Sequence record: PZ513998.1
DNA length: 56,697 nucleotides
Strand: one strand, 5' to 3'
Source of the DNA: a phage
Shown here: positions 45,379-56,697 of the stretch, one piece after another
How the letters are laid out: every line of letters begins with the position of its first letter
Position numbering within the stretch: position 1 is the first letter of the stretch
Position numbers and translations under genes: made by a program
Notes under the pieces: model-generated
The model's database searches: none
What the model was told of the DNA's origin: nothing
What the model saw: the letters and a program-made list of their open reading frames with translations, nothing else

Positions 45379-48300
45379 GTGGCAAATAGAGACGTAGAAC
45401 TACGGATCAGAGCCAGAGATGATAGTCAGAAAACGCTAAAGCAAGTATCAAAGACGTTAGATGACTTAACATCGGCGCAGACCCGTAACGCGGACGCAGC
45501 GAAACGAGGTGACGCTTCGGTCAGAGAACTAGAACAACAATATAAGAAATTAGAGAATGCCGGACAACAATTGCTCCGGCTTAATTCTTTAACAGAGATG
45601 TTTACCCGCCAGAAAGAGGCGCTTAATAAGGTAAACACTCAATTGGCCGAAGCCAAGAAAAAACATAGTGACCTTTCCTCCGCTATGAACGGTGCGTCTA
45701 ATGTCACTAAGAAAATGCAGTCCGACTTAGACAAAGCAGAACGAGCGGTAAAGCGTTTGACCGACCAACAAGACCGGTCGACCAAGAGCGTACAAAAGAC
45801 CGCCAAGGAACTATCTCGTTTCGGGATTTCGTCGAATGATATTGCGACCGCACAGAAAAGAATACGTGATGAAGTAACCCGGACAAACCAAGCGCTAGCC
45901 CGCCAAGAGAAGATCATAGGTGACGTGCCGACTCGCGCACAGAAAGCCCACGCCCAACTACTAGCAAGTTTGAAGTTACAAGCAAACCAACTGGTAGCGA
46001 GCACGAAAGGCTATCAAACACTTGGCCGAGTGATCTCGTCTTTACCGTCAATGTCCGGGCAAATGGCCGACTTGATGGCTCCGGCAGAAGCAGCTAGGCG
46101 TAAGATAGGTACACTAGAAAAACAGATAAACGATTTAGCTACGGCATCAAAACGTTGGCGCAAAGACGCTAGCGGTATGAATTCAGACCTAAAGGCCCTA
46201 GAAGCCTCCGCGAAATCGGCGATAGGAATGTCCCGCATGATCGAGACTTTCCAACGTCAAACCGAAGCGGTGAGAAAAGCGAGAGCGGAATACCGATCAG
46301 CACAGGCCGACGCTAAGAACTTAGCAAATCAGGTAAGACAAGCCGGCACAGCGAATGCCGAGATGGGCGCAAAACTTCAAGCGTCTAATGCTCGACTACG
46401 CGAAGCAAGCCAAGCGTTACGGAATGAAACGGCTTCCGCTAGACAGACTCAATCCGCGTTACGGTCAGCCGGTATTGATACTAGAAACCTAGGAGCGGAA
46501 CAACAACGACTCCGGGGATTAGTACAAAACTCGGTGGGCGGTATTAATAACCTCCGAGCATCGTTAGAGCGGTTGTCCGGTAGCGCCCGATCTTCCGGCA
46601 AAGCCTTTTCATTCTTCCGAGACGAGGGACGTACCACGTTGTCATTCATGCAGAGAATGCGTGGTGACGTTCTTAGTCTGGCGTCAGCCTACATCGGGGT
46701 TCAAGGCGCCGTAGACATGGCGAAAGGTGCGGTAGAGGCCTTTAAGGTTCAACAACAAGCCATGGTTAAAATCGGAACGGTGGTGGGGTCTGGCCCGGAA
46801 GAACGAGCGAAAGAATGGGAGTATATGTTAGGCCTCTCAGATGCGCTCGGTATTAAAATTGAAACACTAAGTAAGGCATATACCAAGTTTGCGGTATCGG
46901 CTAAGGAAGTAGGCCTATCGCAGAAAGAAGCTAAATTTATCTTTGAGAATATCGCAAAGACGGCTCGCGTATATCACCTATCCGACGATGATATGAACGG
47001 CGTGTTCTTGGCCTTGGAACAAATGCTCTCGAAAGGACAAGTTTATGCAGAGGAGTTGAGGCAACAATTAGGTGAACGTCTCCCCGGCGCCGTAGCGATG
47101 TTCGCGAAAAGTTTAGGTAAGACCATACCCGAATTTACAAAGATGATGGAGAATGGCGAGGTAGACGCCAGATCCGTGATTAACTTCGCGAACGAACAAG
47201 GCAAAGCTATCGAAGCGCAACTCGCCGAAGCGCAAAAAGGCGTAGATGCGATCGAAGCTAGAGCATCAAATGCGATGTTCAACCTCAAACTGGCGATATC
47301 AAAATCCGGGTTCATCGAAGCGTATACCTCGATGTTGGAGAAACTGACGGAGTTCATCACATCAGACCGAGGTAAAGAAGCAGCCGAAAAACTCGGAACA
47401 GCGTTCTCCGCGATTGCCGACGGGGTGATATGGGCCGTGGATAATGTAGACCTACTAATAGACGCCCTAAAGGTCTTAGCATCGATAAAGGTGATAAAGA
47501 TCTTAGTATCCACCGGCCGGAATTTGATATCCGTATTCAAGGAAGTTAAGGGCGTCATTTCAACGGTATTGCCTCTAGGAAAACGCTTGGTAGGAGGTAT
47601 CGGATCTCTAATTGCTAGCACAGGACTACTCACCGGTGCGCTGAAACTTCTACTAAGAGCGATACCGTTTGTCGGGGTGGCCCTGTTAGCGTGGGATATG
47701 GTTTCCATTCTCTACGAGAACAACGAAGCGTTCCGGAAGTTTTGCGACGAGACGATCGAGCGGGCTAAGTACCTCGGCAAGATGCTAATCGATTATGCGA
47801 AAGTACCGGGTACTGCGATATATGATTTATTAGTGTCGTTCGTCAGGCCAATAACTACGTTGTTCGGTGATTCCATCAAACAAGTTGGCAAGTGGTTGGC
47901 AGACCTGTTAGGAATGTTACCTGTGGTGGGGGACTCACTAAGCGCATGGGTCATGGGTATTACTGACGACCTGACGAAAGCTGACCGTGAGATATTCGAG
48001 TCTTCGAATAAGCTCAGCAAAGATATCGTAGACAATTGGGATAAGATGACCGGCGACGTATCTTATGTCCACGAAAAAGCCATGGAAACGGTGGCAGACA
48101 ATGCCGGAAAGACCGCCGGAGCCGTAATCGGTTCAATGGAACTGGTGAGCAAGGCTGCAGAACAGTTAGCCAAGAAACAAAGCGGATTCGAGTTTCAGAA
48201 AGACCCCGGAACGGGAATAGGTCAAAGAGACCTCGACATGCGTGCGTTGAAAAAGGAGATCGAGAAACGCCAGAACGCGGAGGAGAAAGCCGACCTAGCA

Positions 48301-49710
48301 GCCAGAAAAGCAGCACAACGTAAGAGCCTCGCAGGACGCCTACAAATCATCGATGAAGAATACGCTAAGATGTATGAAAAAGCGAAAGCCATCGGTGGCA
48401 AAGAGGGCGACGAGATGAAAAAGCAAATCGACGACCTAGTAGCTCACGCGAAACGGTCAGAGACGATGCTATTCAATGCTCAACAAAGTTCTAGCGGTGG
48501 CCTAGATAAGCGTAAGCGCAAGATCGATGCTATCACGCAAGCGCTTGAAAGAATGAACGCAGAAGTTAACAGACGTCAAACTAAGGCTGATCCGGAGTCG
48601 TCTCTCGATGACCGAATTAACGCGGAGATCGAGAAGTCAAACGTTAAGATTAATGCGTTGAAAAAAGAGGCCCTAGCCATAGGCGGACAAGAGGGCAAAC
48701 AACTGGCCGACAACTTGGAGAAGCTACGAGAGAAAACAAACCTCTATCTCTCAGAGAAAATGCAAGTCGAGGAGGTTAAGCGTCTTCAAGATGCAGTTAA
48801 TGCGCAATTAGAGATCAAAAAGAACAAGATTGAAGAAATCAACGCCAAAAGAAAAGCGGGCTTGATTGATGACCAGCAACAAGCTGACGCGATCAAGGCC
48901 ATAAATGAGGGGTCAATAGGGGCGATATCTTCATCACTAGACGCTCTTAGCAACCAAGTGGCGCAGTCATCTACATTATTCAGTGAAGAAGAACTAGTCC
49001 GGATAACAACTGGTATTAGTAAAATACGTTCCGAACTACAAGGCGTTGAGGGTGAATTCACTAAACTAGACAGCCAAGTTGTAAACGGGGTTCTAGGAGG
49101 TTTCGACACGGCGATCAACTCGGCTTATGATGGGATCGTTAAAGTCGCAACTGGGGCAGAAAGTATCGGAGACGCATTCGCAAACCTAGGCGTCGCAGTG
49201 GCTCAGTTTTTCGCAGATTTCCTAAAACAAATAGCTATGGCAATAATGCAACAAATGGTACTCAATGCGATAGCCGGCATGGGTGGAGGGGTAGGAGCAG
49301 CAGCAGTATCGATGGGCGGTGTGGTAGCCCCGGTAAAACACTCCGGCGGTGCGGTCGGGAGCGGAGGTAGGTCTAGAACCGTGGCTCCCTCTACATTTGC
49401 ATCGGCTCCGAAGTTCCATAACGGGGGAATGCCCGGAATTAAGCCTAACGAAATACCGACAATATTAGAGCGAGGGGAAGAAGTCTTATCCAAGAACGAC
49501 CCTAGAAATATCGCAAATGGCGGACAGGCAGCAAGACCGGGAGGACAAGCCGGCCCGACAAACATCAAACTAGTAGCAGTTGATGACCGTAGCAAGATAC
49601 CGGAAGCCATGGCAACGGCCGAGGGCGAGCAGGTTATGATTGTTAACTTAAACCGAAAATCACCCGCGATCCGTAGCATATTAAATCGCGGAAGCTCTAA
49701 GAGGACATAA
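45379..49710 (+). CDS. tail tape measure protein
   Basis: 1443 aa, GTG start; long Ala/Gln/Lys/Glu-rich coiled-coil regions, internal hydrophobic segment, Gly-rich C-terminal region. Confidence 0.8.
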   Translation: MANRDVELRIRARDDSQKTLKQVSKTLDDLTSAQTRNADAAKRGDASVRELEQQYKKLENAGQQLLRLNSLTEMFTRQKEALNKVNTQLAEAKKKHSDLSSAMNGASNVTKKMQSDLDKAERAVKRLTDQQDRSTKSVQKTAKELSRFGISSNDIATAQKRIRDEVTRTNQALARQEKIIGDVPTRAQKAHAQLLASLKLQANQLVASTKGYQTLGRVISSLPSMSGQMADLMAPAEAARRKIGTLEKQINDLATASKRWRKDASGMNSDLKALEASAKSAIGMSRMIETFQRQTEAVRKARAEYRSAQADAKNLANQVRQAGTANAEMGAKLQASNARLREASQALRNETASARQTQSALRSAGIDTRNLGAEQQRLRGLVQNSVGGINNLRASLERLSGSARSSGKAFSFFRDEGRTTLSFMQRMRGDVLSLASAYIGVQGAVDMAKGAVEAFKVQQQAMVKIGTVVGSGPEERAKEWEYMLGLSDALGIKIETLSKAYTKFAVSAKEVGLSQKEAKFIFENIAKTARVYHLSDDDMNGVFLALEQMLSKGQVYAEELRQQLGERLPGAVAMFAKSLGKTIPEFTKMMENGEVDARSVINFANEQGKAIEAQLAEAQKGVDAIEARASNAMFNLKLAISKSGFIEAYTSMLEKLTEFITSDRGKEAAEKLGTAFSAIADGVIWAVDNVDLLIDALKVLASIKVIKILVSTGRNLISVFKEVKGVISTVLPLGKRLVGGIGSLIASTGLLTGALKLLLRAIPFVGVALLAWDMVSILYENNEAFRKFCDETIERAKYLGKMLIDYAKVPGTAIYDLLVSFVRPITTLFGDSIKQVGKWLADLLGMLPVVGDSLSAWVMGITDDLTKADREIFESSNKLSKDIVDNWDKMTGDVSYVHEKAMETVADNAGKTAGAVIGSMELVSKAAEQLAKKQSGFEFQKDPGTGIGQRDLDMRALKKEIEKRQNAEEKADLAARKAAQRKSLAGRLQIIDEEYAKMYEKAKAIGGKEGDEMKKQIDDLVAHAKRSETMLFNAQQSSSGGLDKRKRKIDAITQALERMNAEVNRRQTKADPESSLDDRINAEIEKSNVKINALKKEALAIGGQEGKQLADNLEKLREKTNLYLSEKMQVEEVKRLQDAVNAQLEIKKNKIEEINAKRKAGLIDDQQQADAIKAINEGSIGAISSSLDALSNQVAQSSTLFSEEELVRITTGISKIRSELQGVEGEFTKLDSQVVNGVLGGFDTAINSAYDGIVKVATGAESIGDAFANLGVAVAQFFADFLKQIAMAIMQQMVLNAIAGMGGGVGAAAVSMGGVVAPVKHSGGAVGSGGRSRTVAPSTFASAPKFHNGGMPGIKPNEIPTILERGEEVLSKNDPRNIANGGQAARPGGQAGPTNIKLVAVDDRSKIPEAMATAEGEQVMIVNLNRKSPAIRSILNRGSSKRT

Positions 49711-49729
49711 ATGGTACAGGCCGAAGTAG
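49711..49729 (+). repeat. 19-bp exact repeat ATGGTACAGGCCGAAGTAG (second copy at 49947-49965)
   Basis: start of frame-1 ORF 49711-49869 is identical to the last 19 nt of frame-1 ORF 49870-49965. Confidence 0.9.
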
Positions 49730-49965
49730 ACATTGTTATCAAGCGAGTTAATAATCAAATAGCAACGGAAGCAATATTAATGCAACAATGTATCGCCTCC
49801 GCCGTATGGGGGAAAGAGGGCGCTAAGATTTTCAACAAGACGATAAAGGGGCTACAAGGTGGCAAATAGATGCGGAGAAAATCAGGGAGGGGGTTAGCCT
49901 CCTCCTGTCCCACGGTCATACGTTCGCACGACACTACCCGATCGGCATGGTACAGGCCGAAGTAG

Positions 49966-50418
49966 ATGTCATTATCCGCATTCGAACCAACGAAAAAAAG
50001 CGTAACTATCAATGATTCTATTTCCATCGAAGTTCGAGGCTTATCACTAAACGATATCTCTCGATTAATCCAGTTACACGCCCAAGATTTAGACGGCGTA
50101 TTCGACTTATATTCACAAGGAGTTGGGGCCGGGAAAGAATTAGATAGTTTAGTATTCGCTAACTACTTGCTCACCCTGATATCCTCCGCACCGGGGCTAA
50201 TTAGTAGCATTATCGCGGTTTCTGCGGACGAACCTACCATGGCCGATAAAGCCTCCCTCCTACCGATAACGGCGCAATACGATTTAATGATGGCCGTATT
50301 TGAGTTAACTTTCTCGGACATTGCTACGCTAAAAAAGATCATGGCGAACGTAATGGAGAAAGTGGGAGAAGCGAACGGGAAAACAGTTCCGGCCAAGAAA
50401 GCCAAGAAAAAGGGTTAA
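49966..50418 (+). CDS. putative tail assembly chaperone (gpG-position)
   Basis: 150-aa acidic protein with Lys-rich C-terminus next to the tape-measure region; K-rich run AAGAAAAAGGG near its 3' end. Confidence 0.4.
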   Translation: MSLSAFEPTKKSVTINDSISIEVRGLSLNDISRLIQLHAQDLDGVFDLYSQGVGAGKELDSLVFANYLLTLISSAPGLISSIIAVSADEPTMADKASLLPITAQYDLMMAVFELTFSDIATLKKIMANVMEKVGEANGKTVPAKKAKKKG

Positions 50419-51606
50419 ATGGCACAACCATGTACAAGCAGCAACGACCAGAATTACGTCGTAGGGCGTGGTCGACTATTCTTCGACAAGTTCGTCGACG
50501 GTTGTAACAACTCCGAGCATGGCGAAATGTATTTCGGTAATACCCCGGAGTTATCACTATCTTCTGACACAGAAACGTTAGACCATTATTCGTCTGATTA
50601 TGGTATGCGTGAAAAAGACCTAACCGTGATGCTAGAGCATTCTCGTTCTGGTTCATTCACAACCGACCATATCTCCGCGGACAACCTAGCGTTGTTCTTC
50701 CTAGGGGACAAAACGCATGTTACTCAGACTCAGGTGACAGGCAACAAAGAAGTATTCGAAAACGTGGCATTAGGTCGTCACTACCAACTCGGCACAACGG
50801 ATATCCTACCGATGGGCGTTCGTAACATCGAGAATCTGTTAGTTTACGTGGCGGACGGTGATACAACCATCAACCTAGGCGATGGCGATGTGTCAACTAT
50901 CGACGGTGTAACTAAAGTAAATTTTGCCGGCCAGATCGACTACGACCTAGAGTTAGGACGTATCTATATCGAACCTACCGCTACTGAAATTAAAAACGGT
51001 CAGCAGTTAGTAGTCCAGTATGACATCGAGGCGCAGGCTCGCGAAATCATCATTGCCCGTAACCGCATGATCTACGGCTCACTGCGATTCTTGTCAGCTA
51101 ACCCGGTAGGTAGCGCGAAAGATTTCTACTGGCCCAAAGTCATGTTACAACCTGACGGAGACTATGCACTTAAAGGTGACGACTGGCAACAAATTGGGTT
51201 TACCTTTAGCGTTCTTCGCAAAAACCGCAAAGTGGAGCAGGTTTACATCGAGTCAGCGATGGCAAGAGCATCTACGCCCCCAAAGCCTGATCCGGAGCCG
51301 GAATACCGTCTAACTCTTAGCGTTACTCCGACCTCCGGTACTGAGGGTGATACTTTAGTAGCTAAGGTAAAAGCTACGAAAGACGGCGCTCCGAGAAAAA
51401 CAAAAGTGGTCTTTGCCTTTAGCTCCGACGAGGTGGAACTGGCCGATAGTCACCCTGACGGTGTAGAGACAGACGGGGTTACGGGAGAGGCCACTGTGAA
51501 TCTTACGGTAGGCCCCGTGTCCGGTTCCGCGACAAAAGTTACGATAACAGTAACCGATAGCGACGGAGGAAGTGCGACGGAGGAAGTTACCGTCAACCCA
51601 AAGTAA
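50419..51606 (+). CDS. major tail protein with C-terminal Ig-like domain
   Basis: 395 aa; C-terminal ~100 aa Thr/Val-rich beta-strand pattern (TLSVTPTSGTEGDTLVAKVKATKDG ... TKVTITVTDSDGGSATEEVTVNPK) typical of Ig-like decoration on major tail proteins. Confidence 0.5.
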   Translation: MAQPCTSSNDQNYVVGRGRLFFDKFVDGCNNSEHGEMYFGNTPELSLSSDTETLDHYSSDYGMREKDLTVMLEHSRSGSFTTDHISADNLALFFLGDKTHVTQTQVTGNKEVFENVALGRHYQLGTTDILPMGVRNIENLLVYVADGDTTINLGDGDVSTIDGVTKVNFAGQIDYDLELGRIYIEPTATEIKNGQQLVVQYDIEAQAREIIIARNRMIYGSLRFLSANPVGSAKDFYWPKVMLQPDGDYALKGDDWQQIGFTFSVLRKNRKVEQVYIESAMARASTPPKPDPEPEYRLTLSVTPTSGTEGDTLVAKVKATKDGAPRKTKVVFAFSSDEVELADSHPDGVETDGVTGEATVNLTVGPVSGSATKVTITVTDSDGGSATEEVTVNPK

Positions 51607-56181: not shown

Positions 56182-56697
56182 AACCTTTCATACGAACAGT
56201 TTAGCCGAGACTACACGAAGACTAACTATTCTTCCGCGAGAGCCTCAATGGGGGAAACATGGAAATTCATGCAGTCTCGCAAAAAGATCATTGCTGATGC
56301 TTTCGCTACAAACATTTATGCGTTGTGGTTAGAGGAGATGATAAACAAAAACGAAATCCCGTTGCCACGAGGAAAAACGAGCGACTGGTTTTACGAACCG
56401 TTAGTGAAAGACTGTTTAATTCGTTGCGACTGGATAGGTGCAGCCCGCGGTCAAATCGACGAGAAGAAAGAGACCGAAGCAGCTATCATGAGAATTAACA
56501 GTGGTCTGAGCACTCGTGAGAAAGAAATCGCTCGACTCGGCGAAGACTGGAGAGAGATTTTTAGGCAGTTAGAACGAGAAAAACGAATAAAAGATAAATA
56601 CGGGCTTGTTTTCTCCGGAGATGTGAGTAATATATCCGCTAACGAGAAAACAAACTCGGAAGATGACGAAGAAACTAACAGTGGGGATTCGGAATGA
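56182..56697 (+). CDS. portal protein, lambda gpB family, C-terminal fragment lacking a start codon
   Basis: open in frame 1 directly after the protease stop; first ATG only at 56248; translation NLSYEQFSRDYTKTNYSSARAS...CDWIGAARGQIDEKKETEAAIMRINSGLSTREKE is colinear with gpB residues following ...IAAGL (GVSYEQLSRNY...CDWIGSGRMAIDGLKEVQEAVMLIEAGLSTYEKE); continues exactly where ORF 547-1671 stops. Confidence 0.75.
   Translation, partial: NLSYEQFSRDYTKTNYSSARASMGETWKFMQSRKKIIADAFATNIYALWLEEMINKNEIPLPRGKTSDWFYEPLVKDCLIRCDWIGAARGQIDEKKETEAAIMRINSGLSTREKEIARLGEDWREIFRQLEREKRIKDKYGLVFSGDVSNISANEKTNSEDDEETNSGDSE

Follow-up and report, generated by a model that had tools for sequence, protein, structure and literature searches.

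The window analyzed here, that is, the whole 56,697-nt stretch of DNA deposited as PZ513998.1, consists of 85 consecutive tiles that span it in a single frame from base 1. In 84 of these 85 tiles, a start codon (ATG in 72, GTG in 7, and TTG in 5) comes directly after a stop, which shows that the window is a concatenation of gene calls, joined head to tail without intergenic DNA. The last tile (56182-56697), which opens with AAC rather than with a start codon and has an ATG at 56248, looks like a 5'-truncated gene call, perhaps one spanning the start of the circular record. The tail module runs in the window from the distal tail genes through the tape measure protein (TMP) gene, short ORFs, and a chaperone gene to the tube protein gene, the reverse of the usual order, and the four ORFs between 45379 and 50418 abut on the plus strand with no spacing. 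As the original prediction had stated, two short ORFs (49711-49869 and 49870-49965) lie between the chaperone and tape measure genes, and the chaperone gene ends with AAG AAA AAG GGT TAA. The features of the locus are listed below, where G is the chaperone, GT its predicted frameshifted form, and T the extension that G lacks.

45379..49710, plus strand: TMP gene, 1,443 aa; in the parent genome, its GTG start overlaps the stop of predicted GT by 11 nt
49711..49869, plus strand: 52-aa tile; predicted last 52 codons of the T extension, plus stop
49870..49965, plus strand: 31-aa tile, almost certainly a spurious call; its last 19 nt (49947-49965) are identical to 49711-49729
49966..50418, plus strand: gene G, tail assembly chaperone (pre-tape-measure protein), 150 aa, 0 frame
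50304..50418, plus strand: part of G in which the -1 frame is open, following a TGA at 50301-50303
50331..50337, plus strand: slippery heptamer A_AAA_AAG, codons CTA AAA AAG (L001 3210), the proposed -1 site, 85 nt before the G stop
50406..50412, plus strand: Lys run G_AAA_AAG, noncanonical, 10 nt before the G stop
50419..51606, plus strand: major tail (tube) protein (MTP) gene, with an Ig-like domain; upstream of G in the parent genome

BLAST of the region led to Chi-like siphophages of the genus Lavrentievavirus (Casjensviridae). Judging by exact matches, the parent is Escherichia/Proteus phage E21 (MN604053.1), a Chi-like siphophage: its genome, taken as the reverse complement, contains without any difference four whole tiles (MTP, G, 31-aa, and 52-aa) as well as the TMP tile over its first 400 nt, and has the gene order MTP, G, 31-aa ORF, 52-aa ORF, TMP. 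Proteus phage NotEvenPhaged (OK499986) likewise agrees, with 0 mismatches, with the tiles of G and of the two short ORFs and with the start of TMP, and we used this locus, whose coordinates are given here with the prefix L001, for the layout of the parent.

L001 1519-2706: MTP
between L001 2706 and 2845: MTP-G spacer of 138 nt, missing from the window
L001 2845-3297: G
after the G stop and before the 31-aa ORF: 15-nt piece ACTTTTTCATCTCCT, missing from the window
L001 3313-3408: 31-aa ORF
L001 3390-3548: 52-aa ORF
L001 3538: TMP start

The spacer upstream of G contains, at L001 2751-2780, a terminator-like hairpin AAGGCGCCTCCGGGCGTCTT followed by TTTTGTTTT. If real, a partial terminator at this position would reduce how strongly G, GT, and TMP are expressed compared with the tube protein. 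Phages 96 to 99.9% identical to these Proteus phages have been deposited under Escherichia (E21), Pseudomonas, Enterococcus durans, Staphylococcus ureilyticus, and Salmonella hosts, for which mislabeled hosts or contaminated isolations seem more likely than a genuinely broad host range.

The parent layout accounts for the short exact repeats at this locus. The original prediction had noted a 19-nt signature common to the two short ORFs, and we indeed found the same 19 nt, ATGGTACAGGCCGAAGTAG, at both 49711-49729 and 49947-49965. By our own estimate, a repeat of this length is expected by chance about 5e-5 times in a 5.2-kb region, so it is not a chance occurrence. In the parent, 19 nt belong to both the 31-aa and the 52-aa call, and the repeat is a construction artifact that arose when this overlap was duplicated on concatenation. 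Likewise, the 11-nt GTGGCAAATAG, present at 45379-45389 and at 49859-49869, is the overlap between the 52-aa ORF and the TMP gene copied twice. Short exact repeats at tile ends should thus be read, in windows of concatenated gene calls, as overlaps written twice. Recoding signals, like all others that hinge on intergenic sequence or on which genes adjoin, cannot be judged in such windows, since intergenic bases and gene order are lost. This applies directly here, because five codons of the predicted GT (N-F-F-I-S) and parts of the neighboring codons fall in the 15 nt that are missing from the window, and GT cannot be assembled from the window alone.

The identity of G as a tail assembly chaperone is given by its match to the Pfam family PF23789 (Pre_tape_measure), with a score of 174.4 bits against a cut-off of 27 (E = 1.6e-51) and with residues 1-149 aligned to positions 1-148 of the 149-position profile. 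A search of the G sequence against solved structures returned nothing below E = 0.29. In the contiguous parent, the tube gene is followed by an overlapping ORF pair and then by the tape measure gene, an order that the tiling has reversed and split in the window. There, the 52-aa ORF is in the -1 frame of G, from whose stop it is separated by a 92-nt gap, and this frame is open over L001 3183-3548, from window position 50304 inside G to the stop of the 52-aa ORF. It therefore overlaps G by 112 nt and continues for 83 codons past the G stop. Reconstruction of the parent, on which the original prediction of a lambda G/GT-like frameshifted chaperone had been staked, thus yields the overlapping extended frame, a -1 frame that opens within G and closes only where the 52-aa ORF ends. 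Two other routes to the T extension were rejected. A +1 frameshift would not reach it, as the +1 frame closes at L001 3340, and readthrough of the G stop would lead, in the 0 frame, into the 31-aa ORF only and never into the T domain.

Inside the overlap, in the 0-frame register of G, lies the slippery heptamer A_AAA_AAG (50331-50337). A -1 shift at this site would give a GT of 234 aa, formed by 124 residues of G and 110 of the -1 frame, whereas 0-frame G continues for 26 residues past the slip point. From 50337 on, the C terminus of G (0 frame) and the predicted GT linker (-1 frame) share the same DNA. Three more A_AAA_AAG are found in register elsewhere in the window (22263, 27783, and 33726), where a -1 stop follows after 2, 7, and 3 codons, respectively, and slippage would merely truncate the protein. 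The related G_AAA_AAG is found in register six times in the window and is by itself unremarkable.

The heptamer is conserved well beyond the near-identical Proteus phages. An A_AAA_AAG is found in register, 67 to 88 nt before the G stop, in phages Chi, Utah, Enc34, Kokobel1, RAH2 (Klebsiella), Redjac, MA11 (Pectobacterium), and AVP3 (Aeromonas), and in all eight it falls at one shared point of the G alignment, right at the end of ...LTFSDxxxxKK. The corresponding sequence is A_AAA_AAA in FoX4 and G_GAA_AAG in Ruegeria V11. The codon that precedes the heptamer is GTA, CTA, or ATA, and the fact that its third-position A is kept while the amino acid changes points to selection on the nucleotides themselves. 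In most of the phages compared, the -1 frame starts just a few codons upstream of the heptamer. Among 46 distinct IMG/VR loci with a G relative, 45 display an in-register A_AAA_AAN (33 AAG, 11 AAA, and 1 AAC), a proportion to be read with a slight bias since one of the two retrieval patterns contained the first Lys of the site. In these 45 loci, the heptamer lies 49 to 145 nt before the G stop and is followed by a -1 extension of 69 to 90 codons. The only locus without it (IMGVR_UViG_2974570458_000001) has a -1 extension of only 28 codons, for which a sequencing indel or a deviating arrangement may be responsible. The same architecture is found in 11 GenBank phages whose G proteins are 25 to 69% identical to this one.

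For some sister genera, a frameshift at this position is already annotated, as the records for Chi, Utah, Enc34, and Redjac carry a joined coding sequence (CDS) here. When we joined the two frames at the heptamer, the resulting fusions agreed at every residue with the proteins on deposit for Chi (YP_009101118.1), Enc34 (AFB84033.1), and Redjac (YP_006906024.1), and the annotated junction of the sister genera is thus this very heptamer, bearing in mind that the joined CDSs in GenBank for Chi-like phages are predictions themselves. The predicted 234-aa GT aligns from residue 1 to 233 with positions 1-232 of the 232-position PHROG 11703 (216.3 bits, E = 9e-64), a family made up of the full-length frameshifted GT proteins of Chi-like phages. 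An NCBIfam scan of the predicted GT gave no family match. The name "tail length tape measure protein," which the G, GT, and T proteins bear in RefSeq (NC_025442, NC_018832, and NC_052979) and in PHROGs 11703 and 9221, seems to be a misnomer for the chaperone pair that has spread from record to record.

From the gene order, the frame architecture, the heptamer, its conservation, and the match to the junction in sister genera, all of them direct observations, we infer that E21 and the near-identical Proteus phages make a G/GT tail assembly chaperone pair by programmed -1 ribosomal frameshifting at A_AAA_AAG 50331-50337, a reading to which we assign a probability of about 0.88. Since the original prediction had tentatively placed slippage in the Lys run at the very end of the chaperone gene, we weighed the two sites against each other. 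A genuine frameshift at G_AAA_AAG 50406-50412, which would let GT keep the entire Lys-rich C terminus of G, is distinctly unlikely. From this site, too, the -1 frame runs without a stop into the T domain, and A-site slippage of the A_AAG type is known in enterobacteria. A G_AAA_AAG near the G stop is also present in Kokobel1 and RAH2, one IMG/VR locus (L036) has a second A_AAA_AAG 10 nt before the stop, and a 9-bp hairpin lies downstream of the terminal site in the Proteus phage. However, G_AAA_AAG is noncanonical, as the P-site AAA would have to re-pair with GAA, and it is not conserved: among 12 loci compared, it is found only in the Proteus-phage group, Kokobel1, and RAH2, and it is missing in Chi, Utah, Enc34, Redjac, MA11, AVP3, FoX4, and Ruegeria V11. 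Moving the fusion point to the terminal site lowers the PHROG 11703 score to 205.7 bits, which is 10.6 bits below that of the upstream fusion. Slippage at the terminal site would also leave unexplained why the -1 frame remains free of stops for 49 to 145 nt upstream of the G stop in 45 of the 46 loci. The supported site is therefore the A_AAA_AAG 75 nt further upstream, and the terminal G_AAA_AAG is at most a secondary slip site.

The 9-bp hairpin, formed by GGGAGGGGG and CCUCCUCCU past the G stop, does not rescue the terminal site. It lies about 36 nt from that site, the nearest one, which is beyond the typical spacer of 5 to 9 nt. Its z-score reaches only -1.8, and neither Kokobel1 nor Chi has kept the hairpin, which falls inside conserved T coding sequence (R-E-G-V-S-L-L-L). 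We rejected it both as a stimulator and as a terminator. It is conceivable, albeit unlikely, that the Proteus/E21 group, and perhaps Kokobel1 and Klebsiella RAH2-like phages, use two slip sites in series, A_AAA_AAG and then G_AAA_AAG. If true, this would provide either two GT isoforms with different linkers or more total GT without an RNA stimulator.

How the T extension has evolved bears on whether the 52-aa ORF might instead be a gene in its own right. The alignment of predicted GT proteins displays a variable hydrophilic linker between the slip site and a T domain with the pattern R..VS.LLS.GH..A.HYP.G..W.E..I...RVN......LMQ..., the conservation of which begins about 25 residues upstream of the Met of the 52-aa ORF. 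This ORF matches PHROG 11703 at positions 183-232 of 232, and it also matches PHROG 9221. We compared the Proteus phage with Kokobel1 by codon position in the -1 frame. In the stretch from the G stop to the Met, differences at positions 1, 2, and 3 amount to 8/30, 2/31, and 12/31, which fits -1-frame coding, and the same pattern is found inside the 52-aa ORF (9/51, 5/51, and 22/51). From the heptamer to the G stop, substitutions obey the 0 frame of G, which suggests that the -1 reading of this segment is a loosely constrained linker.

It is very unlikely, given this pattern, that there is no frameshift and that the 52-aa ORF stands as an independent small gene whose translation starts at its own ATG, the annotation given to gp22 of OK499986. 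The ORF does possess an ATG, it is annotated as a CDS in several records, and PHROG 9221 collects short calls of this kind. Yet its Met is not conserved, the relatives having Y, H, T, V, or M in this column, and no Shine-Dalgarno sequence was seen in the 15 nt upstream of the ATG. Moreover, both amino acid conservation and the -1-frame substitution pattern extend upstream of the ATG up to the G stop, and a conserved heptamer with an open -1 frame within G would be purposeless without a frameshift. These sequence comparisons lead us to read the 52-aa ORF as the C-terminal 52 codons of predicted GT, roughly the last third of the T extension, rather than as a gene of its own.

The same comparisons set the 31-aa ORF apart. 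Its DNA, when read from 49872 in the -1 frame, encodes predicted GT residues ...AEKIREGVSLLLSHGHTFARHYPIG, the start of the conserved T domain, and these residues line up with the T domains of nine further phages. As called, the ORF has no PHROG or Pfam match, and its equivalent in Kokobel1 stops after eight codons. It is best understood as a spurious out-of-frame call, in the 0 frame of G past the G stop and on top of predicted T-domain coding sequence. The original prediction had put both short ORFs forward as a possible chaperone extension, split by the tile construction; this fits the 52-aa ORF and fails for the 31-aa ORF, which is in the wrong frame and has no family match.

Another way of producing GT would be slippage of RNA polymerase on the A6 run rather than of the ribosome, which we find extremely unlikely. 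The site is a homopolymeric A run, which reaches A7 or more (A_AAA_AAA) in 11 of the 46 loci. Productive transcriptional slippage, however, generally needs runs of about 8 to 9 or more, and to reach the -1 frame the polymerase would have to leave out 1 nt or add 2 nt. Of the 46 loci, 33 retain the final G of the heptamer, and the strict 0-frame register of the heptamer fits the X_XXY_YYZ rule of ribosomal slippage. Finally, there is virtually no chance that the 31-aa ORF is a real small gene between G and T: it has an ATG and was called in the gene set behind the window, but it overlaps conserved T-domain coding in another frame that suits its substitution pattern better, and it is left unannotated in E21, the RefSeq copy of E21, and NotEvenPhaged.

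According to the programmed -1 frameshift that we propose, most ribosomes would stay in the 0 frame until they reach the TAA of G and release the 150-aa chaperone, while a minority would slip back by one base on A_AAA_AAG, the tRNA-Lys re-pairing from AAA and AAG to AAA and AAA. The slipped ribosomes would read 110 codons in the -1 frame, through the linker over the end of G, the 92 nt that follow, and the 52-aa ORF, with translation ending 11 nt into the tape measure gene. The resulting 234-aa GT would combine the core of G (residues 1-124) with the T domain and its GHxxARHYP...RVN...LMQ motif. That ribosomes actually slip in this phage, and what the two proteins do, is deduced from these features and from analogy. 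By analogy with lambda, G and GT would coat the tape measure protein, with the T domain recruiting the tube protein, and neither would stay in the virion. In the G/GT class of long-tailed phages, the two proteins are produced at a fixed ratio, and tail assembly requires both.

We looked for elements that might stimulate the shift. Given the heptamer and a further 85 nt of each of 10 loci, RNAalifold returned 0 consensus pairs, and single-sequence folds of the 74 nt past the heptamer were no better than those of shuffled sequences (z-scores of -0.6 to +1.3). No Shine-Dalgarno-like (GGAG-like) sequence was seen upstream of the heptamer in the Proteus phage. Stimulators of the dnaX/IS911 type, i.e., a stem-loop or pseudoknot 5 to 9 nt downstream and/or an upstream Shine-Dalgarno-like element, were thus not found at this site. 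Of the features that the original prediction had named for an overlapping frame in either direction, the open -1 frame and the slippery heptamer are present, whereas the +1 frame is closed and the search for a conserved downstream structure came out negative. With no stimulatory element found, a low efficiency is expected; our guess is that it is probably a few percent, as in lambda.

The closest known systems are the "pre-tape measure frameshift protein" pairs of the Casjensviridae phages Chi (gp24/gp23, YP_009101119.1/YP_009101118.1), Utah, Enc34, and Redjac, of which G and GT here would be orthologs. They have in common with the present phage the PF23789 domain, the position between the tube and tape measure genes, and the in-register A_AAA_AAG. 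GT lengths range from 227 to 234 aa across the Chi-type pairs and this phage, and the T motif GHxxAxHYP...RRVN...LMQ is shared. The present G is about 40% identical to the Chi protein, and the extra G_AAA_AAG near the G stop distinguishes the Proteus group from Chi, Utah, Enc34, and Redjac. The tape measure region of Hafnia phage Enc34 (L005 1876-2784) is annotated as several consecutive ORFs, among them ORF23, a "putative tail related protein," and ORF24, a "tape measure protein," while relatives of Enc34 have a single tape measure gene of about 1,440 aa; either a split gene or sequencing frameshifts would account for this.

The likeness to the lambda gpG/gpGT pair, reportedly described by Levin, Hendrix and Casjens in 1993, lies in the gene position, in a -1 shift near the end of the upstream ORF, and in the common N terminus of the two products. 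The presumed role as a tape measure chaperone that is absent from the virion is also shared with lambda gpG/gpGT. The slippery sequence is different, G_GGA_AAG in lambda versus A_AAA_AAG here, and, unlike in lambda, the slip site precedes the G stop by 85 nt, with C-terminal segments of 26 (G) and 110 (GT) residues. No sequence similarity of G to lambda G was detected. The HK97 tail assembly chaperone gp10 (PDB 2ob9) gave a weak score, at 8% sequence identity, and a search by sequence returned no match. The identical heptamer A_AAA_AAG is used in Escherichia coli dnaX. There, the tRNA-Lys slips as proposed here, and the site, which has an upstream Shine-Dalgarno-like stimulator and a downstream hairpin, shifts at about 50%; for these two elements, no counterpart was found in this phage.

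As for the literature, a passage of PMC3483164 cites Xu, Hendrix and Duda (2004) for the general frameshift rule of tail chaperones, and a passage of PMC7385642 cites Xu et al. (2014) on lambda G/GT. The Chi genome announcement makes no mention of a frameshift, the YSD1 structure paper treats the chaperones in general terms only, and our literature search on the Chi frameshift found no experimental paper for this phage family. The fused GT, in either slip-site version, is absent from a collection of 15 billion proteins, a protein-database search with the GT fusion returned at least five close proteins, all G-only, and a profile search gave 153 G homologs, the 120 listed being 124 to 166 aa in length with no full-length GT among them.

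Annotation of the genus is fragmentary. None of the E21, NotEvenPhaged, and Q29 records has a joined CDS at this locus. The E21 record and its RefSeq copy contain no T ORF, NotEvenPhaged has two separate CDSs that are each called "putative tail assembly chaperone," and elsewhere in the genus, records break the region up into small, unrelated "hypothetical proteins." Judged by its sequence, the feature is thus of a known kind, an ortholog of the annotated Chi, Utah, Enc34, and Redjac frameshift and a member of a textbook class, and the sole new point is that the join is unannotated in the Lavrentievavirus records that we examined. The main value of this finding is a better annotation of the genus records, for Proteus phages that are under study for therapy and in which GT is expected to be essential for tail assembly.
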